In this document: piece by piece, positions 1,172-30,905 of the stretch
How positions within the stretch are numbered: position 1 is the stretch's first letter
Layout of the letters: each line of letters begins with the position of its first letter
Source: Patescibacteria group bacterium
GTDB taxonomy: Bacteria > Patescibacteriota > Minisyncoccia > Phycocordibacterales > DATDWN01
Reading direction: 5' to 3'
DNA length: 64,000 nt
Assembly: GCA_040384485.1 (NCBI GenBank)
Contig: JAZKJH010000002.1
Span: forward strand, 150,235 to 214,234
The notes under the pieces: model-generated
Databases searched by the model: none
What the model was told of the DNA's origin: nothing
What the model saw: only the letters and a program-made list of their open reading frames with translations
Position numbers and translations under genes: made by a program

Positions 1172-1182
1172 ATAAATTGATA

Positions 1183-1533: not shown

Positions 1534-1557
1534 GTTTTTCTATTCTATAAATACTGA

Positions 1558-2517: not shown

Positions 2518-2591
2518 AGTTATTTTTGTTAGTTATTATATATAAAATAAGGCTTATAAATTCTACACTATTTTCATCCTTAAAGCAAGTT

Positions 2592-3200: not shown

Positions 3201-3221
3201 AAATATATTTAAAATTGAAAA

Positions 3222-3650: not shown

Positions 3651-3676
3651 GATAGTTTAAATGATGTTTACGCTAA

Positions 3677-4054
3677 TTATTTCTTGTCTGCTGATTTTCT
3701 TCCGGTACCCATAGTTTTCTTCGCTCCTCGTTTTGTTCTCGCGTTAGTTTTTGTTCTTTGTCCTCTAACTGGAAGGTTTCTTGAGTGTCTAGTTCCTCGG
3801 TAAGTTTTGATATCTTTAAGTCTCTTTATGTTACCGGCAATTTCTCTTTTCAAATCTCCTTCTATTTTGAACTCCTCAACAGCCTTTCTAATAGCGTTTT
3901 CTTGCTCAACAGTGATCTCTTTAGGTTTCAGACTTACCTGTACTTTCGCTTTATCAAGAATACTGTGTGCTCTCGCACGGCCTATTCCATATAGGACTGT
4001 AAGTCCTATCTCTATTCTTTTCTCGTCTGGTATTGTGATTCCTAGTATTCTCAT
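3677..4054 (-). CDS. rpsM: 30S ribosomal protein S13
   Basis: 125 aa MRILGITIPDEKRIEIGLTVLYGIG... classic S13 N-terminus. Confidence 0.95.
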   Translation of the reverse strand: MRILGITIPDEKRIEIGLTVLYGIGRARAHSILDKAKVQVSLKPKEITVEQENAIRKAVEEFKIEGDLKREIAGNIKRLKDIKTYRGTRHSRNLPVRGQRTKTNARTKRGAKKTMGTGRKSADKK

Positions 4055-4088
4055 TTTTGTATAGTTTATTAAAAGTGCGAACTAATTC

Positions 4089-4205
4089 TTATCCTTGTCT
4101 TTGTTTGTGTCGAACATTTGCCTTACAAGTAACATAAACATAGCCCTTTCTTCGGACTACTTGGCACTGTGAACACATTTTTTTTACTGATGATTTTACT
4201 TTCAT
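4089..4205 (-). CDS. rpmJ: 50S ribosomal protein L36 (38 aa; not in ORF track)
   Basis: Translating the minus strand by hand gives [38 protein letters not shown], matching the L36 zinc-ribbon consensus; sits between infA and rpsM as expected. Confidence 0.85.
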
Positions 4206-4212
4206 TTTAGAT

Positions 4213-4434
4213 TTAAACTCTCTTGGTTATTCGGCCTTTGCCTCCGTATGGGTCAATTTCAACAACAACTTTATCCCCGACCAGAACTCGTATTCTGTGC
4301 AGTCTCATTTTTCCAGAGAGATACGTTAGCATCTCTTCACCATTATCCTCTCTTCTTACTCTAAAAAAAGTGTTTGGCAAAGCCTCTGTAACTTGACCTA
4401 CTATTGCGGTATCTTTTTTGTTTTGATCTTGCAT
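4213..4434 (-). CDS. infA: translation initiation factor IF-1
   Basis: 73 aa, S1-like OB fold ...[29 protein letters not shown]... Confidence 0.92.
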
Positions 4435-4526
4435 TATTTCACACGATAGACGCGCGAATCACCCAAATTTTTAATACAGATAGTATCCTAACAGAATTAG
4501 GGGTGTTTAGTCAACCCTACATCTAC

Positions 4527-5885
4527 CTAGTTTTCCAGTGTATTGACAATCTCGACTTTGTCTGGGTTATTCGGTATAGACCTGCTCCAGAAAGGTTGGG
4601 TTTTTATCCAGGCTTCTTTCATATTTACATATGTTCGCAAAACCTCCTCCGCACTCTGTTTTGAAAGTCCCAAGAGGTCAGTTTTTATCTTGCCTTCGTC
4701 AAATACCCAGACCACATTGGCGTCCCCCTTGATATTAAAAGATATATTATCGGTAGTGTTTGGATCAAAGTTAACTGTGTTAAGAGTAAAGTCCAAAACA
4801 TCAAGGTTAGAGATTTTTACTGAACCCTGTTCTGTATCAGGCAGTATTTTTTGCAAGATAACACCACTAATAGCTGTTCTGTCGAAAATAATAGCACTTA
4901 TGACTCCTCGCTTCTTTAAGACAGCTGATGACGTGCTTCCGCCTCCTGTTTGTGTGACCGGTTCAAATTTGTAGCTAACACTGCTTTGGTATAATACAAA
5001 GTTGTTCGGAATCTGTGACGCAATCTCAGTTGCTAATGCAGCCTGCAACTCTTGCTCCATCTCGGCTCCAGCCTTATCTAGCACTTCTTTTGAAACAGTT
5101 TTCTGTACACCAGAGAAACCTCCCGTCATTGCAGTTTTTGATCGAGCGTATATTTCGGTATATTTAGGTGTGCCTTTAAAGCCGACAATGGTTAAATCTG
5201 AAAGAGGAATGTTGTATTTTTCACCTACTGCATCAGCCTCTACCACCACTTCGGCAGAACCCGAAACAGTTTTTCCGTCTTTTACCTGTCTTGCTGGCAC
5301 AGTAACGGCAGTTTTGGCTCTGTATATCAAACCTCCTGCTGCCTCAAAGCGTGTAGTTGCCACTAGTCTTTGGGCTTCAGCGGTTTTATTGTAAATAACT
5401 ATGGTTCCAGAAGCCTTTGTATCTACTCTTTCTTCTCCAGTTGCTGTAACTGTTCTTTCTATATCTTTGGCTGTACTAACTATCTGGAATCCTAATCCAC
5501 CACTTGCCAGGTTTTTCTCAGCAGAAAGAACCTCATTTAATACTCTAGTTTCCTGTTTCGGAGAAAAGGTTATCTCCGCACTCTTAAAAAATGAGGAAAC
5601 AAAGAAAACAAGTCCGAACAAAAGCGCTCCTAAAAGGATATACCGAGTAAATCTGCTTTTACTTTTTCTGACCGGCTCGTTGTATTCAAAGTTGTTTTTT
5701 GGAACTTCTTTTTTTTCTTCTTTTACAATAGTTATTTTTGGGACAGACTTTCTTACTATATCTTGAGTTTTTGGTTTTGGTTCAGGAGCAGGGGCAGGAG
5801 CCGATTTTTTCGACACCCTAGGTATCTCTACATTTCTTATCGATTTTTTTGGAGGGAGTACATCTTGTACAATATTTTTTTTCAT
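4527..5885 (-). CDS. hypothetical single-pass membrane protein with Pro/Lys-rich cytoplasmic N-terminus and large extracytoplasmic domain
   Basis: 452 aa; PAPAPEPKPK low-complexity segment, one TM (ILLGALLFGLVFFVSSFF), no recognised domain; occupies the place of map/adk/secY upstream of infA. Confidence 0.5.
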   Translation of the reverse strand: MKKNIVQDVLPPKKSIRNVEIPRVSKKSAPAPAPEPKPKTQDIVRKSVPKITIVKEEKKEVPKNNFEYNEPVRKSKSRFTRYILLGALLFGLVFFVSSFFKSAEITFSPKQETRVLNEVLSAEKNLASGGLGFQIVSTAKDIERTVTATGEERVDTKASGTIVIYNKTAEAQRLVATTRFEAAGGLIYRAKTAVTVPARQVKDGKTVSGSAEVVVEADAVGEKYNIPLSDLTIVGFKGTPKYTEIYARSKTAMTGGFSGVQKTVSKEVLDKAGAEMEQELQAALATEIASQIPNNFVLYQSSVSYKFEPVTQTGGGSTSSAVLKKRGVISAIIFDRTAISGVILQKILPDTEQGSVKISNLDVLDFTLNTVNFDPNTTDNISFNIKGDANVVWVFDEGKIKTDLLGLSKQSAEEVLRTYVNMKEAWIKTQPFWSRSIPNNPDKVEIVNTLEN

Positions 5886-5941
5886 AGAGTTTGTTTGTTG
5901 TTATTTTAGCTCAAAACAATAGGTTTGCAAAGAAATAGTGT

Positions 5942-7153
5942 TTATAACTCTTTTAGTTTTATTTTTTTATCATAAAAAACAGTTTCGATTCCCACAAAAA
6001 TATCTTTTTCTTTGGGATAAGCATCGATGTAAAGATGTTCCAGTGCCTGAGTATCAACCTCTACCAATTTAAGGCCATTTCTCCAGTTCTGCGTTTTATC
6101 TTTTTTCTCCATCGCCAAGAAATTTAAAAATATTTTATTAATGTCTTTTTCTCCGGTGATAAAAATAGTTTTTGGAACTGCACCTTTTGGTGAAAAAGTA
6201 AGAAGTGCATCCTCTAGATATATCGCCCATTCTTTCTCTATGTCCCCAACCACTAAGTCGATAAGCTCTGTAGTAACAGTATCTAGCTTGTAGTCGGTAT
6301 AGAGACGCAGATAAGACTCGGCAATTTCCATACCCACTTCGGCGCGTTTAGCTATCTGACGGACGATATAGCTTCTTCCAATAGGCATTGTTGCAACATC
6401 CTTTATAATGTCTCCACACACAAAAGATATGTGCGTGGTTTCCGAAGTAATATCCATGGTTACAAAGCTTTCTTGAACCAAAAAGGAATCGCGAATAACC
6501 GAAAACAGTACGAGTGGAAAGGAGTGAGCAAGTACGTGCTCTTTTGATATGTGAGTGTGTTTTTGAATAAGTCCTAAAACCTTCTTCTCCACACTCTCCG
6601 GTATTAAGGATAACCAGATATCAGCTTCGAGTGATTTGGTTTTTTTGCCGAGTACGTTGTTTACAGGATAACCGTTCATTCTGGTATTTACCACAGAGCT
6701 TTCAAGAATAATGAGGGAATCTTTGGCATTTTCTGGCAGAGTTTTAAGGGTGTCAGATTTGAACTGGGCAGCTTCAGTATCAGCCAAGTTTTTCAAGGAC
6801 TTACTTGTTACATAAAAAGGTTCTTTTTCCTCTACTTTTAGACTTTTAGACAAAGTGTAAAACCAAGGAGACGAAAAAGTTGCTAGTACTTTGTGGATTT
6901 TTTTATTTTTGGAATTCTGTATTCCCTCTTTTAGGGTGTTCTTTAAAACGATATTGAGTCCTGTCTCCATGCTTTTCAGTAAATTGTTTGGGCCATCCTC
7001 GGATATAGGAAATACGCTTTTTGTGATAAACAAAATTTTTGGCAACTGATTTTTTGAAAACAATACTAGCGAGCTACTAACTAGCCCGCTGCCGATATCG
7101 ATTAAAAGAGCTAACTCCTCTTTATCTTTTTTTATGAAAGACAAAATAGACAT
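5942..7153 (-). CDS. actin-like ATPase, FtsA/PilM family (tentative)
   Basis: 403 aa; N-terminal LALLIDIGSGLVSSS resembles the phosphate-1 motif of FtsA/PilM/MreB-fold ATPases. Confidence 0.4.
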   Translation of the reverse strand: MSILSFIKKDKEELALLIDIGSGLVSSSLVLFSKNQLPKILFITKSVFPISEDGPNNLLKSMETGLNIVLKNTLKEGIQNSKNKKIHKVLATFSSPWFYTLSKSLKVEEKEPFYVTSKSLKNLADTEAAQFKSDTLKTLPENAKDSLIILESSVVNTRMNGYPVNNVLGKKTKSLEADIWLSLIPESVEKKVLGLIQKHTHISKEHVLAHSFPLVLFSVIRDSFLVQESFVTMDITSETTHISFVCGDIIKDVATMPIGRSYIVRQIAKRAEVGMEIAESYLRLYTDYKLDTVTTELIDLVVGDIEKEWAIYLEDALLTFSPKGAVPKTIFITGEKDINKIFLNFLAMEKKDKTQNWRNGLKLVEVDTQALEHLYIDAYPKEKDIFVGIETVFYDKKIKLKEL

Positions 7154-7204
7154 GCATATATTATATAGTAGCCGATACTCAGTAGCTAGGGAAAATTTGC
7201 AGCT

Positions 7205-8959
7205 TTATTCCAGTATTGCTTTTATTCTTCGAACTCCAGATGAAACTGCCTCCTCTTTTGAAATTTTAAAGTGACCAAGTGTTCCGATGTTCTCTACGTG
7301 AGGACCACCACAGAATTCCTTTGAGTATGCGGACTCCAAACTATCTCCAATAAAGTATACAGAAACTTCGTCACCATATTTATCACCGAAAAAGTGTAGT
7401 GCTCCTGTATTTACAGCCTCATCTTTTTTCATAACAACTTTTTGCATAGGTAAACCGAGCTGTATTTTCTCGTTCACTATATCCTCTACCTGTTTCTTCT
7501 CTTCATCAGTCATTTTTCTCTCAAAAGCAAAGTCAAAACGTAGTCTTTCTGCTGTTATATTACTACCCTTTTGAGCTACGCTGGTACCTAGCACATCGCG
7601 CAAGGCCTGATGTAACAAGTGTGTAGCAGAATGGTATTTTGTCTCCATTTCCCCAGTACCAGAAAGTCCTCCCTTAAATTTCTGTTCAGCACCAGCTCTG
7701 GAAAGCTCTTGATGCTTTTTGAACTCCTCCTTAAACAATTCTTCATTCAGTACGATACCTTTTTCAGCAGCGAGTTCCTTGGTTAGCTCGAAAGGGAAAC
7801 CGTAAGTTGTGAAGAGCACAAAAGGGTCTTCTCCTTTTTCGAATTGTCGAAAGCCTTCATCTATAGTTTTCTTAAATTTTTCTATTTCCAGATTAATGAC
7901 ATCTAGTATTTGTTTCTCATTGAATGAGTAGGTATCTCTGTATGCTGTGTGCCCAACCACAACTGAAGCCACAGAAATCAAAAGTGCAGTGTCTTTTTGC
8001 ATTTTTCTCATAGAAACAACTGCTCTTCGGATAAGCCTCCTTAAGATATAACCCTTTTCTGTATTGGATGGTAAAACCCCATCAGAAATCATAAACACAG
8101 CAGTTCTTATATGATCACAAACTATTCTTGCCAACCTATCTTCTTTGTTTGAAACTGGTTGAAGTGGTAAAAACAGCGGCAGAAATAAATCTGTTTCAAA
8201 AACATTACTTTTTCCTTGAAGAGTCATCACCACTCTTTCAAAACCAGAACCAGTATCAACATTTTTATTTGCTAGTCTGTCGATTACTCTCCCCTCCTTA
8301 GAAAGGTATTCCATGAAAACATTGTTCCATATTTCAACAACTCTTTGTTCATCATCCGCTTTCAGGTACTCGTCCAAACTCATACCGCTCCGCAGATCTC
8401 CAGTGAGGTCGTAAAACATCTCAGTGTCAGGCCCGCAAGGTCCGTTTGGCCCAGCACTCCACCAATTTTTTTCCTTTGGTCGGAAGTAGATTCTCTCTCC
8501 TGTTACTCCATTCTTCTCGAAAATTTCCTTCCAAATAGAAAACGACTCTTCATCGCGAGGAGCATTTTCATCACCTTCAAAACATGTCACATACAGTCTT
8601 TGAGGATCTAGTCCAAAACCCTCTTCCTTGGAAGTGAGTAGTTGGTAACTCCAGTTTATCGAGTCTTTTTTAAAATAGTCTCCTAGAGACCAATTCCCCA
8701 TCATTTCGAAAAAAGTTAAGTGGGTATTGTCTCCAACCTCTTCCAAATCCCCTGTTCTTACACATTTTTGTATATTAGCCAGTCTCTTGCCCTTTGGATG
8801 CTCCTCACCAAGTAGATAAGGTACTAGTGGTTGCATACCGGCAGTATTAAACAAAACGGAAGGATCATTTTCAGGCACTAAAGAAGCCGAGGGTATGATA
8901 GCGTGCCCTCTGTTTTCGAAAAACGAAAGAAACCTTCTTCTAACTTCTTTTGATTCCAT
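7205..8959 (-). CDS. alaS: alanine--tRNA ligase, short form lacking the C-terminal C-Ala domain
   Basis: 584 aa; class II catalytic N-terminus (FNTAGMQPLVPYLLG, ...TFFEMMGNWSLGDYFK) plus editing-domain HxxxH (HSATHLL) and CGGPHV motif; roughly 290 aa shorter than typical bacterial AlaRS. Confidence 0.9.
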   Translation of the reverse strand: MESKEVRRRFLSFFENRGHAIIPSASLVPENDPSVLFNTAGMQPLVPYLLGEEHPKGKRLANIQKCVRTGDLEEVGDNTHLTFFEMMGNWSLGDYFKKDSINWSYQLLTSKEEGFGLDPQRLYVTCFEGDENAPRDEESFSIWKEIFEKNGVTGERIYFRPKEKNWWSAGPNGPCGPDTEMFYDLTGDLRSGMSLDEYLKADDEQRVVEIWNNVFMEYLSKEGRVIDRLANKNVDTGSGFERVVMTLQGKSNVFETDLFLPLFLPLQPVSNKEDRLARIVCDHIRTAVFMISDGVLPSNTEKGYILRRLIRRAVVSMRKMQKDTALLISVASVVVGHTAYRDTYSFNEKQILDVINLEIEKFKKTIDEGFRQFEKGEDPFVLFTTYGFPFELTKELAAEKGIVLNEELFKEEFKKHQELSRAGAEQKFKGGLSGTGEMETKYHSATHLLHQALRDVLGTSVAQKGSNITAERLRFDFAFERKMTDEEKKQVEDIVNEKIQLGLPMQKVVMKKDEAVNTGALHFFGDKYGDEVSVYFIGDSLESAYSKEFCGGPHVENIGTLGHFKISKEEAVSSGVRRIKAILE

Positions 8960-9030
8960 AGTAGGTTTATATTAGCTTAAAAATCTTAAAAATAAAAATT
9001 TGTTTTACGTTAAGCTTTTGAGTAAACTCT

Positions 9031-11134: not shown

Positions 11135-12214
11135 TTATGTTGCGTTCTCTATAACTCCCCCTCCTAGGCAAGTTTCGTTTTCATAAAAAACTACAGACTG
11201 ACCGATAGAAACTCCAACCTGTGACATGTCGAATGTTGCCTTAAAACCTTGAGCTGTTTTTTCGAGTATGCAACTTTGTTTTTCTTGCCTGTAACGTATC
11301 CTAGCTTCTAGTTTATATGGAAGCTTTAATGACTCACCACTTATAAAATGAATTTCTTTAAACAATATCTCAGTCTTTGCCTCTTTTTGCTTATCTATTT
11401 CGTCCCCAACAGTAATAGTGTTATTCTGGATGCTTTTTGCAACCACAAAAAACTTCGGATCATTCGGACCTTTTTTTGTAATACTGAATCCATGACCCTG
11501 GCCTATGGTGTAGAACATAGCACCGTCGTGAGTTCCAACGACTTCTCCTTTGATGTTGTGGACATTCCCTGACTTCTTTTCAATATAGTGCGCTAGAAAA
11601 TCCTTCATATCTACTTTTCCAATAAAGCAAAGCCCTTGGCTATCTTTTTTTTCTGCTGTTGGCAGATTAAATTCCTTTGCAAGTTTTCTAACTTCTGGCT
11701 TAGTAAGGTGTCCTATTGGAAACAATACATGTTTCAATTGCTCTTGATTTAAAGTGTGAACGAAATAACTTTGATCTTTTTCCTTATCTACTGACTCCTT
11801 GAGTTCGTACCTATCATTAGATTCGCATCGCTGGGCGTAGTGACCAGTCGCGACAAAGTCCGCGCCCATTTCGAGAGCCTTCTTCAGAAAAACCCCGAAC
11901 TTAACATATTTATTACAAAAAACATCTGGGTTTGGAACTCTTCCGCTTGAGTATTCTCGTATCATATAATCCACCACCTCATTTTTATACTCCTTTTCAC
12001 AGTCCATTGTAATAAAAGGAACATGAAGAGTAGCGCAAACTCTCATTGCACTTCGTCTCTCTTCTTTCCAGTCACATGGTAGCCACTCTGGATGCCACAC
12101 TTTCAAAAATACTCCGGTAACATCGTATCCATCTTTTATAAGTAGCGCCAAAGCAACAGAAGAGTCTACTCCTCCAGATACACCAACAAAAACTTTGGGC
12201 TTTTTATTCATCAT
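11135..12214 (-). CDS. mnmA: tRNA-specific 2-thiouridylase
   Basis: 359 aa; PP-loop VGVSGGVDSSVA and MnmA core. Confidence 0.9.
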   Translation of the reverse strand: MMNKKPKVFVGVSGGVDSSVALALLIKDGYDVTGVFLKVWHPEWLPCDWKEERRSAMRVCATLHVPFITMDCEKEYKNEVVDYMIREYSSGRVPNPDVFCNKYVKFGVFLKKALEMGADFVATGHYAQRCESNDRYELKESVDKEKDQSYFVHTLNQEQLKHVLFPIGHLTKPEVRKLAKEFNLPTAEKKDSQGLCFIGKVDMKDFLAHYIEKKSGNVHNIKGEVVGTHDGAMFYTIGQGHGFSITKKGPNDPKFFVVAKSIQNNTITVGDEIDKQKEAKTEILFKEIHFISGESLKLPYKLEARIRYRQEKQSCILEKTAQGFKATFDMSQVGVSIGQSVVFYENETCLGGGVIENAT

Positions 12215-12292
12215 AATCTTTATATCACAAAACTAGGGTATTCTCATAAAACAAAAGGAAGATTTGAAGATCTTCCTTTTATACATTGGGTC

Positions 12293-12475
12293 CTAGGACA
12301 CATTACTATGTTGCCGGTTATAAATATGTGTGGCAATCATTGCCGCAACCAAATATACCAATCCAAATTCCCAAAACTTGGACTCATTTCCAAAAATAAT
12401 TCCGTACACAGCAGTGACTGAAATACCGCAAAGAAACGCGAATCTGAAACGGTCTGAATTGAATGGAACTTTCAT
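12293..12475 (-). CDS. hypothetical small membrane protein
   Basis: 60 aa, two hydrophobic segments; weak support. Confidence 0.3.
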   Translation of the reverse strand: MKVPFNSDRFRFAFLCGISVTAVYGIIFGNESKFWEFGLVYLVAAMIATHIYNRQHSNVS

Positions 12476-12534
12476 TAGATTCCTCCTATTGGTTATCCTA
12501 CAATAAAATATATCACTCGTCTAGCTTTAGATGA

Positions 12535-12571
12535 ACAAAAAAATCAGGGTTGCCTGTTGGACAACCCTGAT
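12535..12571 (-). terminator. intrinsic terminator downstream of the 12575-12994 gene
   Basis: 10-bp stem atcagggttg/caaccctgat; on the minus strand it is followed by an 8-nt U-run. Confidence 0.6.
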
Positions 12572-12574
12572 AAG

Positions 12575-12994
12575 TCACGAGAAGAAATTCTTAACTTTCT
12601 GCCAGAAACCAGGTTCGGTCTCTGACATGTCGAATGTCTCCCTTACAGGAGATGCTGGATAGTTGGGCGTTCGTTCTCGCTCTGGAAGGGCCTGATCTCC
12701 AAACCTCATAGGATGCCCCATGAGTGCCTTTCCGAAACTGAAAACGTATGCCATAACGCAACCCCCACCGGCATCGGAGTAACAAAATGCCAAGTCCTCG
12801 GCACCACTCGCAACGCTGATAACTTCGCCAGATCGAAATGTCCGACCACAGTTGTCGCACTTTGTTTTAGACCCCTTATACTTCGCTAGCTCGTAATAAG
12901 GGTCGTCGTCGGGAACGTACCCATCACTCACCTCAATTCCACCCATCCTCGCACCTCCAAGAATCGCGACACCTTCTATCTCTCCTGCTGCCAT
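12575..12994 (-). CDS. hypothetical Cys4 (zinc-ribbon-like) protein, in a high-GC islet
   Basis: Likely start MAAGEIEG... (GGAGG 6 nt upstream); CDNC...CYSDAGGGC cysteine pairs; GC visibly higher than flanks. Confidence 0.5.
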   Translation of the reverse strand: MAAGEIEGVAILGGARMGGIEVSDGYVPDDDPYYELAKYKGSKTKCDNCGRTFRSGEVISVASGAEDLAFCYSDAGGGCVMAYVFSFGKALMGHPMRFGDQALPERERTPNYPASPVRETFDMSETEPGFWQKVKNFFS

Positions 12995-13050
12995 AAGCAA
13001 CCTCCGATTACCAAACTATCACCTTTGAATTAATTGTCAAAATTTTGTAT

Positions 13051-13094
13051 AAAAAAAACGAGAGTTACGGACGATGTATTGTCCATAACTCTCG
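13051..13094 (-). terminator. intrinsic terminator between the two genes of the high-GC islet
   Basis: cgagagttacgga...tccataactctcg hairpin with 8-nt U-run on the minus strand. Confidence 0.55.
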
Positions 13095-13099
13095 ATGTG

Positions 13100-13624
13100 T
13101 CACTGAAGATCGAAGTTACGCTTCAGTGTGTCGGCCGGAATGTAGATTTCGTACTTCTCCCTGTGTGGAGCGAGCGCGATCCAGTCATGCCATGCCGTTT
13201 CCAGTTTCCTTGTATACTTTTTGATTGAAGGCTTGTTTTCATTTCCTTCAAACAAGGTCACGTTGTCGCGAACTGGAATTTTTCCTGGACGAATCCCGCC
13301 GTTTCCTACTTCGGTGTAGTAGAAGTAGTATTCATTAGACTGAATTACGCCGGTGCCAAGAAAGAAACTTCCGTCACCACGACTGACACCGCGGAGGTGA
13401 ATCAAGTTAGTCACTTCCGGTTTTGACCAGCCATGACTCACAAAATCACCGACGATATAGGCGACAACTGCTCCTAACCCTAGACCAAACATACCAACAA
13501 AGATCGCCATCATCATGATCGGCATGTAGTCGAACAGGTCTTTTGGTGGCATCCAGGCGGCTTCAAAACCCAAAAAGGTCCCAAATACCAAACCAATAAG
13601 GCCAAAAACTAACACAACAAGCAT
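13100..13624 (-). CDS. hypothetical 2-TM membrane protein with C-terminal soluble domain, in a high-GC islet
   Basis: Probable start MLVVLVFGL (AAAGGAG 6 nt upstream); two TM helices; no recognised domain. Confidence 0.5.
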   Translation of the reverse strand: MLVVLVFGLIGLVFGTFLGFEAAWMPPKDLFDYMPIMMMAIFVGMFGLGLGAVVAYIVGDFVSHGWSKPEVTNLIHLRGVSRGDGSFFLGTGVIQSNEYYFYYTEVGNGGIRPGKIPVRDNVTLFEGNENKPSIKKYTRKLETAWHDWIALAPHREKYEIYIPADTLKRNFDLQ

Positions 13625-23674: not shown

Positions 23675-23822
23675 AGACTAAAGATAACTAAAAAATGTAA
23701 ATATGTAAAATCACTTGTTAAACTTCCTAATCTATATATCTTGCAAGGTTCAGGCTTACCGTGATATAGTCTGGCTAGTAATAAGAAAAATTCACAACTG
23801 AATGTACCTTGAAGGAGAAGTT

Positions 23823-24518
23823 ATGCAGAGAGTTAGAATCCCAAGAGGCGGTTTGTATAGCAGATTCAATCCACCGTCCTCCCTTGAAGTTGCCTCAACT
23901 AGAATTGATGAGCTTAACAGGGAAATCGAGTACATTGAAAATTCAATTGAATTTTCGGGGCCCAAACAAGGTCAATCCGAACAGGAGTACCAAACTTGGG
24001 TTCAGAAAGCAGTCAGTGCTCTGAGCTACTTCAAAACAGAAAGAGTCTACTTAGTCACATGGACAACCCAGAACCAACCTGGTTCCGCACGTACAGACGG
24101 AACATATGCTAGTTCACTCGCGTACATTGACACTGAAGTAAGAAACTTTCTGGCCTCAGAGGAAGCAAAGTATGTTGAGTTATACTCATACTCACGTCCT
24201 GAGCCAACCAAAGAGCAAGCGATCTCTAGACGTCTTGAGCTAAACAAGCTTATGGACTATTTGGAGAAAAAAGAATTACATCTTAAAAATCTTTCCGACT
24301 CCAAGAAAATTGATATGCAGGATTGGAGATCAATCAGGAAAGGTATTTGGGATCTAAAGTCCAAAATCAAGGTTGAACAACGATATCTCAAACCCCTTGC
24401 AAGACTCGCTAATCGTTCTGGGCCAGCAGTATTTCTACTGGGACTCCTTGAACGTGCGGTATCGGAGGGCTTTAAAATGACCCCTGAAGAGGAATCCCAA
24501 TTCAAGGCTTTGCAATAA
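23823..24518 (+). CDS. hypothetical protein
   Basis: Probable start MQRVRIPRGG (AAGGAG 6 nt upstream); 231 aa, helical, no recognised domain; intermediate GC. Confidence 0.45.
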   Translation: MQRVRIPRGGLYSRFNPPSSLEVASTRIDELNREIEYIENSIEFSGPKQGQSEQEYQTWVQKAVSALSYFKTERVYLVTWTTQNQPGSARTDGTYASSLAYIDTEVRNFLASEEAKYVELYSYSRPEPTKEQAISRRLELNKLMDYLEKKELHLKNLSDSKKIDMQDWRSIRKGIWDLKSKIKVEQRYLKPLARLANRSGPAVFLLGLLERAVSEGFKMTPEEESQFKALQ

Positions 24519-24533
24519 TTTATCTAACACAAT

Positions 24534-24565
24534 CACCTTCCAGTATGCTGGAAGGTGATTTTTTT
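24534..24565 (+). terminator. intrinsic terminator (first of two in tandem)
   Basis: caccttccagtatgctggaaggtg followed by tttttttt. Confidence 0.65.
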
Positions 24566-24586: not shown

Positions 24587-24614
24587 GCCCCGCAAAACAT
24601 CGCGGGGCTTTTTT
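24587..24614 (+). terminator. intrinsic terminator (second, tandem)
   Basis: gccccgcaaaacatcgcggggc followed by tttttt. Confidence 0.6.
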
Positions 24615-24619: not shown

Positions 24620-24652
24620 AAAAAAATACCACCCGGGTTTAACGCCGGGTGG
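24620..24652 (-). terminator. intrinsic terminator ending the minus-strand ABC operon
   Basis: ccacccgggtttaacgccgggtgg hairpin with U-run on the minus strand. Confidence 0.6.
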
Positions 24653-24690
24653 CTTGTATCGCACAATGCGATACTCAAACAAAGAACAAA

Positions 24691-25503
24691 TTACAAACTG
24701 GCAAACTGACCTTCGATTGCCTTGACGAAATCCGCGAATTTCTGGGTTTCAGTTACTCCCGGAATCCAGCAAAGATCAAGTGCTTTGAGATCGTAGTCCC
24801 CTACAACCCTCGCACCCGATGTCACATTCCCAGCTTCATCGTGGTCACGACCAAGCAGGATCACTCTGTCTGCCGTTGCACAGGCCATGCGAATGTCATG
24901 GGTTGTGACAATAATCGTGTTCAACTCGTGAGCATTTGCCATTTCAGTGATCAGGATTCTGGCTCTCTCCTTACCGAGGATGTCCAGGTTGGCAAATGGC
25001 TCATCCATCAGAAGAAAATGCTTTGAACACATCATCTGCTGGATAATAGCGACCCTCTGTCGTTGACCACCGGACAACTGAGACGGATAGTTTTTGACCA
25101 CACGGGTCAAGCCAAACCGTTCCAGATACTCCATGGCAATTTTTTCGCCAGTTTTTCCGCCCACAACATCCTTTTTCGAAACCTCGAAGGCTCGAACAAG
25201 GTTACCCAAAACTGTCCGTGACTCGATGAGTGGATAGTCCTGAGCAACAACACCCACTTCTCCCTGTCTTACTGGTTCAGTGTGGTTGTTAATGTAGATA
25301 CCACCTTCGGTGGGTACCTGCAGACCAGCGATGCACCGAAAGAGTTGTGTCTTACCGATGCCCGAGGGTCCGAGTAGAGCCACAATCTGTCCATAGCCAA
25401 GGGTGTTGTAAATCTCAAACTCGAGATCTTCCAAAACCTGGGTCGTTTTGAATGACAACGAAACCACTGCCCTCAATAGCCGTTCACCGACTTGGTATTC
25501 CAT
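24691..25503 (-). CDS. ABC transporter ATP-binding protein (SsuB/TauB-like)
   Basis: 270 aa; Walker A GPSGIGKT, signature LSGGQRQRV, Walker B LLMDEPFANLD; high GC. Confidence 0.85.
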   Translation of the reverse strand: MEYQVGERLLRAVVSLSFKTTQVLEDLEFEIYNTLGYGQIVALLGPSGIGKTQLFRCIAGLQVPTEGGIYINNHTEPVRQGEVGVVAQDYPLIESRTVLGNLVRAFEVSKKDVVGGKTGEKIAMEYLERFGLTRVVKNYPSQLSGGQRQRVAIIQQMMCSKHFLLMDEPFANLDILGKERARILITEMANAHELNTIIVTTHDIRMACATADRVILLGRDHDEAGNVTSGARVVGDYDLKALDLCWIPGVTETQKFADFVKAIEGQFASL

Positions 25504-26375
25504 TATTTTTTTCCTCCCTCACGAAGACCAGCCCATGGAAAAATCTTTCGAGCCTTCACAAAACCGAAGTCAATGAGAAGACCGACAATCCAAAGAAGAA
25601 TCTGGATGGCGTAAACTTCATCCAAATTCCAGGTTCTCTGGGAATTCAAAAGTAGTGTACCAACACCACCTTCGGACCTGGCGATACCTTCCACAGCGGT
25701 CAGCATCATCCAGCCCATTGCCTGGTTCTGACGAAGAATTTCAAGCATTTCAGAGGCACGACCCCGAAGGTCTGTCTCGTACATTGCCTGCCATTCTGAC
25801 ATCCCCATCGTTCGCATGTAATCTCGCTCGGCTTGGGGAACGGCATCAACCATTCTTGCCCAGCCAGCGATACAAAATGCACCCACAAACACAACCAAGA
25901 TAGACAGCTTTAAGCTGTGTGCCCCGGAGGTGTAGTAAGTCAAAATGAGAGTAATACCGGCAGTGCTCAAAAACCTGAAGTTTCCAAACACAGTCACGAT
26001 ACCCTTTGTCACCGACAAACTTCTTGCAATGACTGTCAAAATCCCGATTGGGATAAGGATCAGAATCATTTGAAAGTTGAGTGTCAGACTGACAATAAGT
26101 TCTCTTCCGAGAGCGTTCTCGGTCCAGAGCTTTCCAATTGCATCAACAATTGAAACAGGTCCTGGGAATGTCGACTCAGGAATCATCATCCAAAATCCAA
26201 TTGCAATTGCAATGTGGACAAGAGTGATGACTCGCATCGCCGAACTTGGCAAAGGGACATGCGGCAAGAAAGCTGCAATAGCTTTCCTTCCCCATGTGTT
26301 TGCATTAGCAACACGAAGATTCAAACTCGGTTCTACCGACATTGCAACATCGCGTTTTTTCGACTCTTCTGACAT
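25503..26375 (-). CDS. ABC transporter permease (SsuC/TauC-like)
   Basis: 290 aa; 6 TM; start overlaps the ATPase stop by 1 nt. Confidence 0.8.
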   Translation of the reverse strand: MSEESKKRDVAMSVEPSLNLRVANANTWGRKAIAAFLPHVPLPSSAMRVITLVHIAIAIGFWMMIPESTFPGPVSIVDAIGKLWTENALGRELIVSLTLNFQMILILIPIGILTVIARSLSVTKGIVTVFGNFRFLSTAGITLILTYYTSGAHSLKLSILVVFVGAFCIAGWARMVDAVPQAERDYMRTMGMSEWQAMYETDLRGRASEMLEILRQNQAMGWMMLTAVEGIARSEGGVGTLLLNSQRTWNLDEVYAIQILLWIVGLLIDFGFVKARKIFPWAGLREGGKK

Positions 26376-26571
26376 TTTGCCCTTCCTTTGTAAAAAACTG
26401 TAACTGTCAAAGATCTAATCGTGGACTGATTTTTAAACCCTTCCACCAAACCACTTTCCTGTACTCATTTCTGAATACTTGAAAGGGACTTGGAAAAGGG
26501 TCCGATAGCTGAGCAAGCCCAACTATCGGACCGTAGATTAACCTTATCTTCTACAAGGTGTTAAAGAACAA

Positions 26572-28449
26572 TTATCGACCGATGGTGATTTCCACCCGTC
26601 GATTCCGTGCTCGTTCCGAAGCCAAGTTCTGATTGGCTTCCGGACTGAGAGGCCGGTCGGGACCCATGCCTGACGCGTTCAAGCGTCGGGTATCAATGGC
26701 CCCTCGGGCAATCGCGAGAATCTCCCTTTTCACGCTTTCGGCGCGACGGAAAGACAAACTGCGATTCAAGTCAGCAGACCCCGTGTTGTCCGTATGACCG
26801 ACGATGTCGGCCTTCAGGTTACCGGTTGCAAGCTGACGGTAAATCATTTCGATGGTTGAGAACGAACTGGGGAGTACCCGGTCCGAGCCAACTTCGAAAT
26901 TGATTGCGTAGCTGGTGTTACCAACAACTTCCGATACTGCACCTTCAGAAACGGCTGCAACATCGGCTTTGCCAGCATTCACACCAAGTACTTCGTTCGC
27001 CTTGGCAAGAGCACCCAACTCGAGGATTTCATCCACGGGCTGAAGCTTCTTGATAACAGTCGGCGCAAGATCATGGATCATGGCGCCATACTGTTCATAG
27101 ACGGCAGCGTAAATGTTTGCGCCACCATCCAGACCGTAGTACTGCATCGCATCAGCGTTGTTCCAGACTCGGCTTCCACCGAACTGAACGTCGTATCCCG
27201 CCTTGTTACGATGCCGAACACTCTTGTAAACCTGGACCCATCCGGGCTTTTCAGAAGTACCCTGGGCTGCGAGACCACCCTGGCCCTTGTAAACCAATAC
27301 AGCCATCTCAGCTGCACGCGTAAGCGCAGCGTCTGACGACTTGATCATGTCACTGGCTTCCGAGGTGCCTGCGAAAATCGCCGAAAGTGAATCAACGTTC
27401 TGCTTGCTCCAACCACGAATGGTCAGAACAGTTGACGCCATCTGGTTCAGGTTCTCTCGAGTTGAGATAGCTGAGACCAGTGTATCGCGACTTCCCTTTG
27501 CCATATTGAAATCGGCGGGGCTCCACGATGCAAATGCTTCAACGCAGACGTTCTTCTTTTCGCCGGTGGGTTTTCCGTTGCGGATTACCACTCGTTCTTC
27601 GCAATAAGCGGTGTTGTACTTCTCGACTGCGTCGAGGAAGTCACTGGAATTGAGAAAGTTCACAGCATCAGGATCCCAGGTTTTTTCATCCGGGTTGACC
27701 TTGAGGCCATTCACTTGCGCCCAAAACAGTGCCAGAAGATGGTCACCGTCCCAGAAGTAGTTGGCGATGAGCCCGCCGTTCTCGGTGTTTTTACCGAGAG
27801 CCATTTCGGGCTGGTCCTTCCACTTCACAGGAACGAAAACCTGATCTTCACCGTAGGAAGAACCCACAGCTCCTGCAACAACAACTTCGCAATCCCGTTC
27901 GGGAAGCTTGTTGTCCTTGCAAATCTGACGCATGACTTCGTTCCACTGAGCAATGTAGGCCGGGCCTCCATCACCCATCACGATGACAGCCTGAACTCCA
28001 GCTTCGGGATTTCCCCCTCCACCATTTTCCGCCCATGCTTTCGCAAAGGCAGTGAGTTCATTCTTCATCTGGTTGGTGTCATCTTCGTTGATGAGCTTCA
28101 GATAGGCTCCCCGCTTACCGATGGTTGAATCCGTCAAAGTGACGGGACCGCCATTGGCAAGAAAAAGACCGAACTGTGCGCTCCACTTCATAACATGAAG
28201 TCGAATCTCCTTATTGGCGTTCCGCGTTGCGGGACGACCAGTGGGAAGAACAACCTTCACGTTTGTTGCGACATTGGTACCGACTTCACTGGAGCCAAGC
28301 TCCACTGCCTTCGGCACAGCTGCCTCCCGAATCTTGCGATACGGAAGAAGACTGTCCTGGAAATACCAGCCAAGAGCAACGAGGATGAGAACAAAAGCGA
28401 CTTTGGGAACAATTCCCAGTTTCTGCAGAAAACTCATAACACGCTCCAC
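26572..28449 (-). CDS. periplasmic substrate-binding-protein-like domain fused to a C-terminal OmpA/MotB peptidoglycan-binding domain
   Basis: 625 aa; N-terminal anchor; C-terminal motif GHTDNTGSADLNRSLSFRRAESVKREI...NRRVEI is classic OmpA_C; the central ~450 aa resemble the NMT1/SsuA-type binding fold (tentative). Confidence 0.6.
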   Translation of the reverse strand: MERVMSFLQKLGIVPKVAFVLILVALGWYFQDSLLPYRKIREAAVPKAVELGSSEVGTNVATNVKVVLPTGRPATRNANKEIRLHVMKWSAQFGLFLANGGPVTLTDSTIGKRGAYLKLINEDDTNQMKNELTAFAKAWAENGGGGNPEAGVQAVIVMGDGGPAYIAQWNEVMRQICKDNKLPERDCEVVVAGAVGSSYGEDQVFVPVKWKDQPEMALGKNTENGGLIANYFWDGDHLLALFWAQVNGLKVNPDEKTWDPDAVNFLNSSDFLDAVEKYNTAYCEERVVIRNGKPTGEKKNVCVEAFASWSPADFNMAKGSRDTLVSAISTRENLNQMASTVLTIRGWSKQNVDSLSAIFAGTSEASDMIKSSDAALTRAAEMAVLVYKGQGGLAAQGTSEKPGWVQVYKSVRHRNKAGYDVQFGGSRVWNNADAMQYYGLDGGANIYAAVYEQYGAMIHDLAPTVIKKLQPVDEILELGALAKANEVLGVNAGKADVAAVSEGAVSEVVGNTSYAINFEVGSDRVLPSSFSTIEMIYRQLATGNLKADIVGHTDNTGSADLNRSLSFRRAESVKREILAIARGAIDTRRLNASGMGPDRPLSPEANQNLASERARNRRVEITIGR

Positions 28450-28541
28450 TGTTAAACTGTTTACGAAATTAGGTTTGTATCACCACCAGTTCACTTTGAA
28501 CTAGTGGTGATACGTTAGAGAAAAAATTCTTCTTCCTCTTC

Positions 28542-29651
28542 TTAACGAGGGGGGAGAAGACTGCCAAAACGATCTGTCGGTTCAGAAGTCTGGCTGACCT
28601 TTCGGGCAACCGGAACTTCTTCCCCAACTCTCGATCTGGCTTCGATGAGAAGTACTGGATCGCGATTCTCCGCCAACTGTCGCTGACCTTCAGCAAACGT
28701 TGACATGGAATCAACACGGCCTGTCAGTTCACGAATCAAATCTTCTTCGCCAATGGCGTCGTCAATCTGACCCGCAACCAGTTGCCCCCTAACCGTGTTC
28801 ATAACGCCTTCAGCTTCGGCAATCCACTGATCGGTCTGCTGCATCATGCTCTGTGCAGTCATCTCGAACAGCTTGGTCTTTTCGTCCTTACCAAGGATTC
28901 CCTTCAGATCATCGGCACCTTGTGCCAAGTCCTCAGCTGATTCGTAATCCTGGACCATCATCTCAACATTGAATCGAGTAACCTCGATAATTGAAGTGAT
29001 GACCCCCTGCAACTGCGTCAGAAGAGCAACATAGCCCTTCTGAACCAGCAACCGTTTTTCGAGCTTGGCAACTGCGCCTGTCAGAGAACGAATCTTCTGA
29101 CTGAGAACTCGAAATTCGGTCTGCAGTTTACTGTCCGTCCACTTACGGCCCCCATCGGAGCTTCCGTGTTCGACGCAATATTCTGCACGCCGCTTTGCTT
29201 CTGCGAGACTCGTCTGGGTCTCTTCCAACCTACGTTGTGCCGATTTTTCACGGCCAACCGCACGATCAAGAACTTCCTGGTTTTTTGCACCCTTCGGTTC
29301 GAGATAGTGAGTAACGTATGACCTGGAGCGAGTGACGGGGTCAACCTGTGCGATTTTCAAAGCAAAGGCATCAACCCATCCCATGAACAAGTACCACGCT
29401 GCTGCCTGAACCTTGGGGTTCATGACAAAAGCGCCGATTGTTCCGATGATGGCGAGCATGCCGCCCAGAACTAGCAGTTTGTATCCTGCTTCGATTCCGA
29501 GCGTTGCAAAGTTGATAATGTAAGGCAGAACGAACGTTCCAATCCCCACGATACCAGCTGCATAAGCCCCGCCAACAATCCAACGCCAAACCTTCTCTTT
29601 TCCAAGAAGGAATTTCGGCTTTGATCCAACCAACTCAGGCAAATTCGACAT
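28542..29651 (-). CDS. hypothetical membrane protein, 2-3 N-terminal TM plus long coiled-coil cytoplasmic domain
   Basis: 369 aa; start codon abuts the stop of the upstream gene (coupled); AAGGAG RBS; no confident family (TelA/XpaC- or PspA-like is only a guess). Confidence 0.5.
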   Translation of the reverse strand: MSNLPELVGSKPKFLLGKEKVWRWIVGGAYAAGIVGIGTFVLPYIINFATLGIEAGYKLLVLGGMLAIIGTIGAFVMNPKVQAAAWYLFMGWVDAFALKIAQVDPVTRSRSYVTHYLEPKGAKNQEVLDRAVGREKSAQRRLEETQTSLAEAKRRAEYCVEHGSSDGGRKWTDSKLQTEFRVLSQKIRSLTGAVAKLEKRLLVQKGYVALLTQLQGVITSIIEVTRFNVEMMVQDYESAEDLAQGADDLKGILGKDEKTKLFEMTAQSMMQQTDQWIAEAEGVMNTVRGQLVAGQIDDAIGEEDLIRELTGRVDSMSTFAEGQRQLAENRDPVLLIEARSRVGEEVPVARKVSQTSEPTDRFGSLLPPR

Positions 29652-30383
29652 CTACTGCTCCTTTGATGAAACAAAACTCAACAAACGCTTGTACTCTTCC
29701 GTACGAGCGGACACGGTAGCGCTAAAGCGACTACGGGGTCCATCGTATTTTGCTGTCACAGTTGAAAGCTCAACTTGGAGCTGTGCAACCTGTGATTGAA
29801 GTTGAGTGCGTTCGGCCACAAGACGGGCCATATCCGCATCAACTTCCTTGGTGCGATTTTCCAAGTCGGAAATAGTCGCACTTTTGTCTCGAGTTTCCTC
29901 ACTCTCACGTTTCCTCGCTTCATCCATATAGGACGCCTCGAAGGTTGAGAGTAAACGCATACGCTCACCAACACTCTTTGCGATTTGTTGTGCATTGAGT
30001 CTTGGATTTGAGGCTGACACTGCTGCCAGCGCCGCACGTGTGCACTGAACTCGATCGGTTATTACGCCAGACAAGGCATTGAACTGTGCCATGAACTCTT
30101 TGAGACCAGGTTCTTTCGATTCCTGATCCAAAGCGTTACTGATCACAGCGTCAAACTCCTTATCCACTGTTGGTTGCGAAGCCGAGCCAATGCTCGAAAT
30201 CACACCGGTCGTCCGCTGAAAAATTGACGCGGACGGACCCAAAGGAACTCCTGCCATTACGGCTGGAACTCTCTGAACAGGGCGTGATGAAACAGAAGTA
30301 TTTTGTCCTCGCGGTACGTCTGCTTCATCCGGTTCCGGAGTTTCTTCTCCATCACCTTTCCAGAACAATCCTTTCAAACCCAT
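29652..30383 (-). CDS. hypothetical coiled-coil protein with Pro/Ser-rich N-terminal linker
   Basis: Start MGLKGLFWKG (AGGAGAAAAGAGGA upstream), 243 aa; the ORF-track N-terminal extension lacks an RBS. Confidence 0.5.
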   Translation of the reverse strand: MGLKGLFWKGDGEETPEPDEADVPRGQNTSVSSRPVQRVPAVMAGVPLGPSASIFQRTTGVISSIGSASQPTVDKEFDAVISNALDQESKEPGLKEFMAQFNALSGVITDRVQCTRAALAAVSASNPRLNAQQIAKSVGERMRLLSTFEASYMDEARKRESEETRDKSATISDLENRTKEVDADMARLVAERTQLQSQVAQLQVELSTVTAKYDGPRSRFSATVSARTEEYKRLLSFVSSKEQ

Positions 30384-30473
30384 CTTTATCCTCTTTTCTC
30401 CTAAAACAAAAACATTGACAACGAACTTACACAAAAAAAGAGACTTTTGTCTCCAAAATGTACCTAATTAAAA

Positions 30474-30502
30474 TAATAGCAGTTATATGTACAACTGTCA
30501 AG
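30474..30502 (-). promoter_or_regulatory. near-consensus sigma70 promoter for the coiled-coil/ABC operon (TTGACA-17-TATTAT)
   Basis: Minus strand: TTGACAgttgtacatataactgcTATTAT. Confidence 0.45.
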
Positions 30503-30543
30503 GCTTACCAAGTTGCCAAAAACGTGTTATTTATGGCCGTAGT

Positions 30544-30571
30544 TTGACACAATCAATATATGTATTATCAT
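30544..30571 (+). promoter_or_regulatory. sigma70-like promoter for the divergent small gene (TTGACA-16-TATCAT)
   Basis: agtTTGACAcaatcaatatatgtatTATCATtc about 20 nt before the ATG at 30591. Confidence 0.4.
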
Positions 30572-30590
30572 TCATGATAGAGGGCAACAA

Positions 30591-30905
30591 ATGAGTAAAT
30601 TGACAGATGAAGTCGAACGAGCTGCGGAGTACGTCGAGACTAAGATCGAGAACCTGGCTGAAGCGATTCAGTCAATTGTAGCCAAGGGAATGTCCTACGA
30701 CCTGGAAATTCGCAAAAACGGAGTGAAGGTCCACAACATGCCTACGACAGTGGCTGGCATCCTTGCTGGACTCAGCTTCCTCCCGCCATTCCGACTAGCG
30801 GGTCTTGCTGGCCTTGCAGGCGCAACTCTTCAAGGGTATACCTTCCATCTTCGGCAGGTTACTCCACCCAAAGGAACCGGCGCTTCCTGGCTGAAGGAAA
30901 CCTAG
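30591..30905 (+). CDS. hypothetical small protein with C-terminal hydrophobic/Gly-Leu-Ala repeat segment
   Basis: 104 aa; LAGLAGLAGATL repeat; high GC; divergent from the ABC operon. Confidence 0.45.
   Translation: MSKLTDEVERAAEYVETKIENLAEAIQSIVAKGMSYDLEIRKNGVKVHNMPTTVAGILAGLSFLPPFRLAGLAGLAGATLQGYTFHLRQVTPPKGTGASWLKET

Follow-up and report, generated by a model that had tools for sequence, protein, structure and literature searches.

A conserved operon of Patescibacteria joins a putative membrane-anchored PspA-like protein and a new coiled-coil family to a predicted cell-wall-tethered solute importer

RESULTS

Two adjacent coiled-coil genes head an ABC transporter operon

A 64,000-nucleotide (nt) stretch of a Patescibacteria group bacterium genome (GenBank assembly GCA_040384485.1, contig JAZKJH010000002.1, positions 150,235 to 214,234; referred to as the window) contains a minus-strand operon of five genes. 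In order, these encode a coiled-coil protein (A), a membrane protein with a long helical domain (B), a solute-binding protein (SBP) fused to an OmpA-like domain, a permease, and an ATP-binding cassette (ABC) ATPase. On balance, the evidence somewhat favors reading this as a conserved chromosomal operon of Patescibacteria in which a membrane-maintenance module, made up of a PspA-like protein B and its partner A, is coupled to a cell-wall-tethered solute importer of the NitT/TauT type.

Gene A (29652-30383, minus strand) encodes 243 amino acids (aa) from an ATG codon (MGLKGLFW...). The mechanically called open reading frame (ORF) reaches a TTG at position 30434; the ATG is the preferred start because homologs begin with MG.K and because a GGAG ribosome-binding site (RBS) precedes it. 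Gene B (28542-29651, minus strand; 369 aa) is 100% identical to hypothetical protein V4690_01310 from a metagenome-assembled genome (MAG) of a Patescibacteria group bacterium. The stop codon of A directly abuts the start codon of B (TAGATG), and the RBS of B (AAGGAG) lies within the 3′ end of A. A preliminary description of the window, made from the nucleotide sequence alone, had placed a pair of these sizes at the head of a minus-strand operon, and the ORFs confirm it. Its promoter also holds: TTGACA-17-TATTAT at 30473-30501 (minus strand) has a TG extended −10 element and matches the consensus at 11 of 12 positions.

The gene order is conserved across distant relatives

A word-indexed search identified nine close relatives of B at 50 to 59% identity, and a hidden Markov model (HMM) scan of 1.84 billion cluster representatives extended the B family to 107 clusters at an E value of ≤1e-3. 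Nearly all of these proteins are 330 to 380 aa long and match B from end to end. Scans with the B profile also yielded one locus from genome contigs and two from metagenomes. We analyzed the gene neighborhoods of close members (loci L001-L007 and L009) and of distant members (L018-L024; approximately 20 to 25% identity to B). The distant loci matched the B profile with E values from 4e-29 down to approximately 1e-4, and all ORFs at the loci of both groups were scored with the family HMMs. The order A-B-SBP/OmpA-permease-ATPase was found at 14 of 15 loci, as far as each contig extends, and holds down to approximately 20% identity in B. At every locus the gap between A and B is −1 to 26 nt.

Gene A follows the same pattern. 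A profile search recovered 11 close homologs, and the 210- to 260-aa proteins encoded upstream of the distant B genes are also A homologs, scoring 40 to 94 bits against the close-family profile. Distant A proteins that were never used in profile building scored 49 to 87 bits against the A profile. The recurrence of the operon is not due to chance. The preliminary description had left room for two ordinary proteins without conserved linkage; instead, the pair keeps company with ABC and OmpA genes at all but one of the loci.

All informative source labels are Patescibacteria, Parcubacteria, or Minisyncoccia, except that of L009 (JBEBJM010000006.1), which is labeled "MAG: Nitrospira sp." The flanks of this locus have a GC content of 0.38 and neighbors in common with a Minisyncoccia locus, and they share frr, holB, def, and fmt with the Patescibacteria loci L023 and L018. 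This contig has probably been misbinned and does not derive from Nitrospira.

The surroundings of the operon differ in several ways among the loci. At L018, an AAA+ ATPase split into ORFs of 320 and 179 aa (6502-8058) lies immediately upstream of A. At L024, the operon is downstream of approximately 20 small ORFs (1-9000), including helix-turn-helix (HTH) and DUF4280 genes, in a phage- or mobile-element-like arrangement, and three extra small ORFs (134, 65, and 89 aa; 11802-13497) sit between its transporter genes. A Band_7 (SPFH) gene adjoins the operon at L004 (9215-10033), and Peptidase_M50 (RseP-like) genes lie downstream of it at L001 (15130-15933) and L023 (18047-19053). These envelope-related neighbors are sparse, and the association may be due to chance.

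B resembles PspA and Vipp1 and carries its own membrane anchor

B has two N-terminal hydrophobic transmembrane (TM) helices (residues ~24 to 48 and ~55 to 79), followed by a third, moderately hydrophobic helix (82 to 101) at a position like that of α0 in PspA. A "DP" junction at residues 104 and 105 leads into a PspA/Vipp1-like cytoplasmic domain (residues 105 to 345). In an AlphaFold2 (AF2) model, the third helix occupies residues 79 to 100, and long helices span residues 105 to 163, 174 to 245, 255 to 293, and 299 to 328 before a disordered tail, with a predicted local distance difference test score (pLDDT) of 67 overall and 85 to 95 for residues 120 to 240. The lengths of the four long helices (59, 72, 39, and 30 aa) match α1, α2+3, α4, and α5 of PspA/Vipp1. 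This layout, with long helices over approximately 250 aa, bears out the two or three TM segments and long helical domain first described. Exactly two N-terminal hydrophobic segments are present in 52 of 60 B-family members. The N terminus carries charges of +5/−2, followed by a neutral loop and, beyond helix 3, a strongly basic segment; because of this distribution, the N terminus is predicted to be inside and the PspA-like domain to lie on the cytoplasmic face of the membrane. Following a disordered linker, the tail ends in an [RK][FY]xxLL motif that is conserved in the broad family (residues 360 to 369 of the window protein) and that, by analogy only, occupies a place comparable to that of the docking motifs of ESCRT-III C termini.

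To compare B with PspA, we built a profile of 10 PspA/Vipp1 sequences: Escherichia coli PspA (NC_000913), Synechocystis Vipp1 (from PDB alignments), and eight diverse PspA genes from IMG/VR. Alignment of a 60-sequence B family with this profile in hhalign gave a probability of 92.3% (P = 5.4e-7) over 174 columns, placing residues 91 to 282 of B on residues 9 to 184 of PspA, from α0 through α4. The probability was 1.4 to 1.6% when either the PspA profile or the B family was reversed and 0.1 to 0.2% when the columns of the PspA profile were shuffled. Reversed and fully shuffled controls were used instead of rotated-column controls, which keep contiguous true segments and are not true negatives. 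When members that match PspA directly were dropped, the probability was 90.7%, and the closest 30 and closest 15 B sequences gave 77.8% and 62.7%, respectively; in all three cases the register was unchanged. Against a two-sequence profile of PspA and Vipp1, the B family scored 78.7% over 161 columns in the same register, compared with 8% over 41 columns for yeast Snf7 and Drosophila Shrub, a comparison limited by the two-sequence Snf7 profile. These alignments suggest that B is closer to PspA than to Snf7/ESCRT-III (PF03357).

Other features of B are consistent with this relationship. Five of the 60 family members, all distant, match the Pfam family PF04012 (PspA_IM30) on their own (best E value, 2.4e-5; 16 to 24.5 bits), and these matches begin at profile positions 21 to 23, which correspond to the DP junction. 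A family signature, DP-x5-A[YF]AxEYL, falls at the α0/α1 junction, where PspA has AEDPEKML. One distant member, P0065, is annotated as phage shock protein A by JGI. In a Foldseek comparison of the B model with the PDB, Vipp1 filament subunits (8qbw, 8qbs, and 8qhx) were found with probabilities of 0.97 to 1.00 and target-normalized TM scores of 0.55 to 0.62; the best entries, 8qbw and 8qbs, had a probability of 1.00 and TM scores of 0.58 to 0.62.

Alternatively, the pair could supply the ABC transporter with generic coiled-coil accessory subunits that act, for example, as scaffold, gate, or regulator, the likeness to PspA being convergent and membrane-remodeling activity absent. Several results fit this alternative and weigh against a PspA-type membrane-maintenance role. 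The window protein has no match to PF04012 even at an E value of ≤1, and a narrow family of nine B sequences, too shallow an alignment, gave only 2% against the PspA profile; the assignment therefore rests on the broad family profile and on a model with a pLDDT of 67. The dependence of the hhalign probability on a broad family alignment is also seen with single-sequence PspA, which scored 26% against the B profile. All of the PF04012 scores are under the 33.9-bit gathering cutoff, and B is not a PF04012 member by Pfam's own threshold. The Foldseek E values for Vipp1 are weak (0.04 to 0.2), with BAR domains and other helical bundles scoring nearby, and both the narrow and the broad B profiles returned only coiled-coil noise from PDB sequences. 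The helix at residues 82 to 101 is weakly amphipathic (hydrophobic moment of 0.28, versus 1.35 for E. coli α0), which makes an α0 role uncertain. Strict co-occurrence with the transporter is what would be expected of dedicated subunits. Also to be counted against our interpretation are the absence of any detectable relative of known function for A (in Pfam, NCBIfam, the PDB, Foldseek, and hhalign) and the exceptional locus L005 (976-4819). At L005, the permease and ATPase genes remain but no SBP/OmpA gene is present, and B is frameshifted into ORFs of 84 and 281 aa; this variant may be a decaying cassette or an assembly error.

The accessory-subunit alternative does not readily explain why the PspA alignment depends on residue order, collapsing when reversed (1 to 2%) or shuffled (0.1%), or why, in more than 15 members, it extends over so many columns in a constant register that begins at the DP junction. 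The succession of helix lengths also speaks against it, as does an independent study in which the equivalent proteins of a related operon were classed as PspA/Snf7 (PMC11237479). We consider the alternative unlikely. B itself probably belongs, as a remote and TM-anchored member, to the PspA/Vipp1 branch of the ESCRT-III superfamily. The PspA/LiaH-like identity guessed at in the preliminary description is thereby supported for B as remote homology; it does not extend to A.

A defines a new family of cytoplasmic coiled-coil proteins

A consists of an N-terminal hydrophobic peptide, a disordered Pro/Ser-rich linker to approximately residue 70, a three-helix bundle (residues 75 to 125), and a single helix (residues 131 to 240). 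The AF2 model has a pLDDT of 77 overall and >90 for residues 75 to 240; residues 1 to 70 are disordered, as the preliminary description of a Pro/Ser-linker coiled-coil protein anticipated, and the helix at 131 to 240 is uninterrupted. A short conserved segment, GPSASIF.RTTG, lies between the disordered region and the three short helices. The N-terminal motif [FIL]K.L[FL][WF]K occurs family-wide at the end of the disordered linker (residues 1 to 10 of the window protein), and the A protein of L024 begins with MAKGIFSKL, which resembles the start of PspA α0. This motif and the C-terminal motif of B are candidate docking or membrane-binding peptides.

No assignment for A or B was found in Pfam, NCBIfam, PADLOC, or PHROGs, where both gave only subthreshold coiled-coil matches, in agreement with the earlier finding that neither fits a family that could be named. 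The other family suggestion then offered besides PspA/LiaH, a TelA (PF05816)/XpaC-like module, fails: neither family appears for A or B in Pfam or NCBIfam at an E value of ≤1. Distant A proteins likewise gave only coiled-coil noise against Pfam, as did the A profile against PDB sequences, and Foldseek found no analogue of the A model in the PDB (best E value, 2.7). In hhalign, A scored 1 to 7% as a diverged PspA, 0.2% as Snf7, and 10 to 16% as a paralog of B, and all three were rejected. The sole significant structural match to the A model was BFVD entry A0A8D4KE56, an unnamed 211-aa viral protein (E value, 2.7e-4; probability, 1.00; 202 columns). A is thus a new coiled-coil family, cytoplasmic, and defined so far solely by its obligatory position upstream of B.

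The remaining genes encode a NitT/TauT-type importer with an OmpA-like domain

The third gene (26572-28449, minus strand; 625 aa, with a likely true start at the ATG at 28437) encodes a protein with an N-terminal TM anchor, an NMT1-type binding domain, and a C-terminal OmpA-like peptidoglycan-binding domain (residues 518 to 623). The OmpA domain matches PF00691 with 41.3 bits against a cutoff of 27.2. OmpA-C-like proteins in the PDB (PA0833-PD, YiaD, Pal, and MotB) were matched with a best E value of 4e-12, which improved to 9e-29 when the family profile was used. The binding domain of the window protein is not itself detected as NMT1 by Pfam; in the close family the protein is approximately 100 aa larger and too diverged for the Pfam model. 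Five of the 12 SBP/OmpA family members match NMT1, NMT1_2, and Phosphonate-bd, as seen at the distant loci, and the window protein aligns with the NMT1-positive ortholog at L023 over residues 303 to 623 (BLASTP E value, 2e-15). Sequence comparison thus points to a NitT/TauT-type binding domain that is enlarged and diverged in the close family. A fused binding-protein/OmpA gene had been recognized in the preliminary description, and the PF00691 match together with the NMT1 and Phosphonate-bd matches of homologs confirms it.

The permease gene (25503-26375, minus strand; 290 aa) is of the BPD_transp_1 type and NitT/TauT-like. The protein scores 23.3 bits against PF00528, just under the 26.4-bit cutoff; its orthologs at other loci match PF00528, and its nearest NCBIfam models are SaoP and TauC. 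The ABC ATPase gene (24691-25503, minus strand; 270 aa), whose start codon shares 1 nt with the permease stop codon, encodes a protein that matches PF00005 with an E value of 3e-26. NCBIfam models of sulfate, phosphonate, taurine, and nitrate types match it at approximately 1e-31 to 1e-39. The substrate cannot be assigned, because all NCBIfam scores are far below the equivalog cutoffs. All three components of a NitT/TauT-type ABC importer are therefore encoded here: an NMT1-type SBP, recognized through orthologs, a BPD_transp_1 permease, and an ABC_tran ATPase.

The presence of an ABC ATPase beside a PspA-like protein raises a further possibility, in which the five proteins form a single trans-envelope machine. 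The ABC ATPase, replacing an AAA+ enzyme of the Vps4/PspF type, would drive assembly and disassembly or remodeling of an ESCRT-III-like polymer of A and B, while the OmpA domain would grip peptidoglycan and the SBP would dock on the permease, for use in division, membrane scission, or host attachment. The invariant gene order and the tight coupling of the A-B and permease-ATPase junctions would suit such a machine, and most loci lack an AAA+ ATPase, which ESCRT-III and PspA systems normally use. The conserved short motifs at the ends of A and B, on disordered linkers as is typical of docking peptides, and the enlargement of the SBP and its divergence from NMT1 in the close family are also compatible with it. 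Yet the permease and SBP are of an ordinary type I importer kind, whose default role is to import solutes, and an AAA+ gene does adjoin the operon in some relatives (L018 and an operon from "Candidatus Handelsmanbacteria"), so no replacement by the ABC ATPase need be assumed. We regard a machine of this kind as quite improbable.

Hairpins, a leader, and a divergent DUF4342 gene accompany the operon

If translation of the SBP/OmpA gene begins at its GTG, 92 nt separate it from B; with the ATG at 28437, the more likely start, the spacer measures 104 nt. It contains a hairpin at 28477-28513 (minus strand) with a 17-bp stem, one G·U pair, a 3-nt loop, and no T-run. A spacer of 90 nt with a 13-bp hairpin had been reported before; both elements are present, the hairpin being stronger than then described. 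The spacer has a folding free energy of −35 kcal/mol (z = −6.9 versus shuffles), and a smaller hairpin lies at 28517-28539 in the same spacer. Equivalent stems of 10 to 20 bp with unrelated sequences occur in the spacers of L001 (11114-11208), L004 (5157-5269), L006 (5046-5142), L007 (2829-2909), L009 (5979-6075), and L019 (10252-10328), for a total of seven loci with the window. No such hairpin occurs at L018, L020, L023, or L024, the four most distant loci, where the spacers are 26 to 53 nt. Because it lacks a T-run, we infer that the hairpin is probably a processing, stability, or partial-termination element that raises the ratio of A and B to the transporter.

Between the promoter and gene A lies a conserved 5′ leader (30384-30472, minus strand) with a hairpin and T-run (30454-30439), a CTTGTCA box, and the GGAG RBS. 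The −35 box, extended −10 element, hairpin with T-run, and RBS are conserved at the DNA level among the window, L004, and L007; the position of the hairpin is conserved with differing stem sequences, and the CTTGTCA box is invariant. This hairpin is terminator-like and directly follows the likely transcription start, and the leader region could be an attenuator or operator. Rfam searches that covered the operon with its leader and hairpin returned nothing near any gathering score.

A DUF4342 gene (30591-30905, plus strand; 104 aa, with a hydrophobic segment at residues 54 to 76) is divergent from the operon and matches PF14242 with an E value of 7e-7. It has its own promoter, TTGACA-16-TATCAT at 30544-30571, which agrees with the consensus at 11 of 12 positions, and its GC content of 0.53 matches that of the operon. 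Orthologs that are approximately 50% identical, the same divergence as in A and B, adjoin the operon at L002/L003 (L002, 12497-12769), L004 (2831-3103), and L007 (497-823), and the conserved divergent promoter/leader region occupies 30384-30590 in the window, 3104-3287 in L004, and 815-978 in L007. No DUF4342 gene was found at L001, L006, L009, or the distant loci, and a literature search for DUF4342 found no papers. The DUF4342 protein is a probable accessory or regulatory partner, and the operon here probably comprises six genes.

At its other end, the operon is closed by an intrinsic terminator (24628-24653, minus strand) with a 9-bp stem, 7 GC pairs, and a T-run. Facing it is a convergent 238-aa ORF (23802-24518, plus strand) without a family match, which is followed by tandem terminator-like hairpins (24531-24560 and 24587-24608). 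This ORF was excluded as a member of the system, as no homolog was found at any other locus.

High GC content is a trait of the operon

The GC content of the operon is 0.50 in the window, versus 0.40 in the flanks. The preliminary description called this high-GC operon foreign-looking and a candidate envelope-stress or defense module. The excess is real, and it recurs: values for operon and flanks are 0.55 and 0.38 at L009 and 0.55 and 0.42 at L023, and the GC content and third-position GC content (GC3) of the operon exceed those of the flanks by approximately 0.10 to 0.17 in almost all low-GC hosts (the window, 24691-30905 against flanks; L001, L002, L004, L006, L009, and L023). Several distant loci share housekeeping neighbors (def-fmt, frr, holB, rseP, and an S1-domain gene), and the excess persists at loci with such synteny. 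Because it is present in nearly every genome, including at syntenic loci, the GC excess is not good evidence of recent transfer; it is a trait of the family and not proof of recent import into the window genome. Candidate causes are repeated transfer, expression-linked codon use, and amino acid composition.

The operon could also be viewed as a horizontally mobile island, a defense system, or a phage-related module. The GC excess of approximately 0.10, flanks that differ between most loci, the position of L024 among many small ORFs with an HTH gene, and the resemblance of the A model to a viral protein in BFVD could all be taken in this sense. Set against them are the shared housekeeping neighbors at several distant loci, where the GC excess occurs too, and the lack of an integrase, transposase, or other mobility gene flanking the operon in the window. 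A and B had no match in PADLOC-DB 2.0 at an E value of ≤0.1, where the transporter genes showed only generic OmpA (ZorB) and ABC ATPase similarity, and three scans of IMG/VR and searches of GenBank phages and PLSDB plasmids found no relatives of A or B. These searches give the defense proposal no footing, and we judge a mobile or defense-related origin very improbable.

DISCUSSION

Our preferred interpretation is a membrane-maintenance module coupled to an importer, and its closest points of comparison are the PspA-type systems. PspA, Vipp1, and LiaH are peripheral proteins that bind the membrane solely through their amphipathic α0 helix. B is like PspA, Vipp1 (IM30), and LiaH in the alignment of its domain from α0 to α4, the succession of helix lengths, and the Foldseek match to Vipp1. 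It differs in being integral: purely peripheral attachment through α0 does not describe B, in which two TM helices are fused in front of the α0-equivalent helix. Two further features set B apart: a conserved GS-DGG-W insertion at the tip of the hairpin and the C-terminal [RK][FY]xxLL motif. The window operon has no PspF, PspBC, or LiaI partner. In the LiaI-LiaH system of Bacillus and the PspB/PspC-PspA system of E. coli, small TM proteins encoded in the same operon tether a PspA-type effector to the cytoplasmic membrane face. B would likewise place a PspA-type domain at that face, but it unites anchor and effector in a single polypeptide, and A, its soluble partner, showed no match to LiaI, PspB, or PspC in Pfam or NCBIfam and is not related to them.

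In archaea, CdvA is a coiled-coil recruiter encoded next to the ESCRT-III protein CdvB. By analogy only, the position of A recalls this arrangement, with a non-ESCRT coiled-coil gene immediately upstream of an ESCRT-III-superfamily gene. A has no sequence or structural similarity to CdvA, however; there is no Vps4/CdvC here, and Cdv systems have no link to an ABC importer. The transporter genes resemble the NitT/TauT importers TauABC, SsuABC, NrtABC, and ThiXYZ in the NMT1/Phosphonate-bd SBP of orthologs, the BPD_transp_1 permease, and the type of ATPase, but the SBP here is TM anchored and fused to an OmpA-like peptidoglycan-binding domain.

A related operon has been reported once, in a comparative-genomics survey of the phage shock protein (PSP) system (Ravi et al. 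2024, mSystems; PMC11237479), and literature searches on PspA with Patescibacteria and related topics found nothing else relevant. The operon, listed in Table S3 of that study for "Candidatus Handelsmanbacteria," begins with five genes whose order is the same as A-B-SBP/OmpA-permease-ATPase (PMC11237479). The authors suggest a link between membrane remodeling and solute transport, with OmpA binding peptidoglycan, and they call the positioning and regulation of bacterial PspA/ESCRT-III members without an AAA+ ATPase an open question (PMC11237479). Compared by described gene order, the two operons share a PspA-like gene directly upstream of the SBP+OmpA, permease, and ABC ATPase genes. The published operon also has a TM-Snf7 gene and tandem (inactive and active) AAA+ ATPases (PMC11237479), whereas the window (23.6 to 31.1 kb examined) has neither a second TM-Snf7 gene nor an AAA+ ATPase; the AAA+ association is echoed only at L018. 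Further differences are that the TM anchor here sits on the PspA-like protein itself and that the upstream "X" protein corresponds here to the conserved family A, which coevolves with B. The association of PspA, ABC, and OmpA genes has thus already been noted computationally. What is new is the A family, the TM-fused PspA-like architecture as a rule of the B family, the Patescibacteria-wide distribution, the conserved RNA hairpin, and the link to DUF4342.

In the mechanism that we propose for the membrane-maintenance module, B would polymerize on the inner face of the membrane as PspA and Vipp1 do. Because it would be permanently anchored, it may act locally, stabilizing or reshaping the bilayer where it sits. 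A might dock on the B polymer or regulate it through its long helix, while its N-terminal hydrophobic peptide, on a flexible linker, could touch the membrane or B. The cotranscribed importer may bring in a small solute that the cell requires during the same envelope or osmotic stress, or the import site may itself need membrane protection. The hairpin between B and the SBP/OmpA gene would probably set a higher ratio of A and B to the transporter, which a pair that forms a polymer would require.

The PspA/Vipp1/ESCRT-III proteins are an ancient and universal membrane-remodeling system, and this operon offers a natural case in which to consider how its members are positioned and regulated without an AAA+ ATPase. 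It would combine a permanently anchored PspA-like protein, a previously unrecognized partner family, and a gene order locked to a cell-wall-tethered importer. If the five proteins did form a trans-envelope machine, it would be an ABC-powered, ESCRT-III-like polymer mechanically tied to the cell wall in ultrasmall Patescibacteria. Patescibacteria have minimal genomes and depend on hosts for lipids and metabolites, and a five-gene module retained by such organisms is likely to be important for the biology of their envelope.

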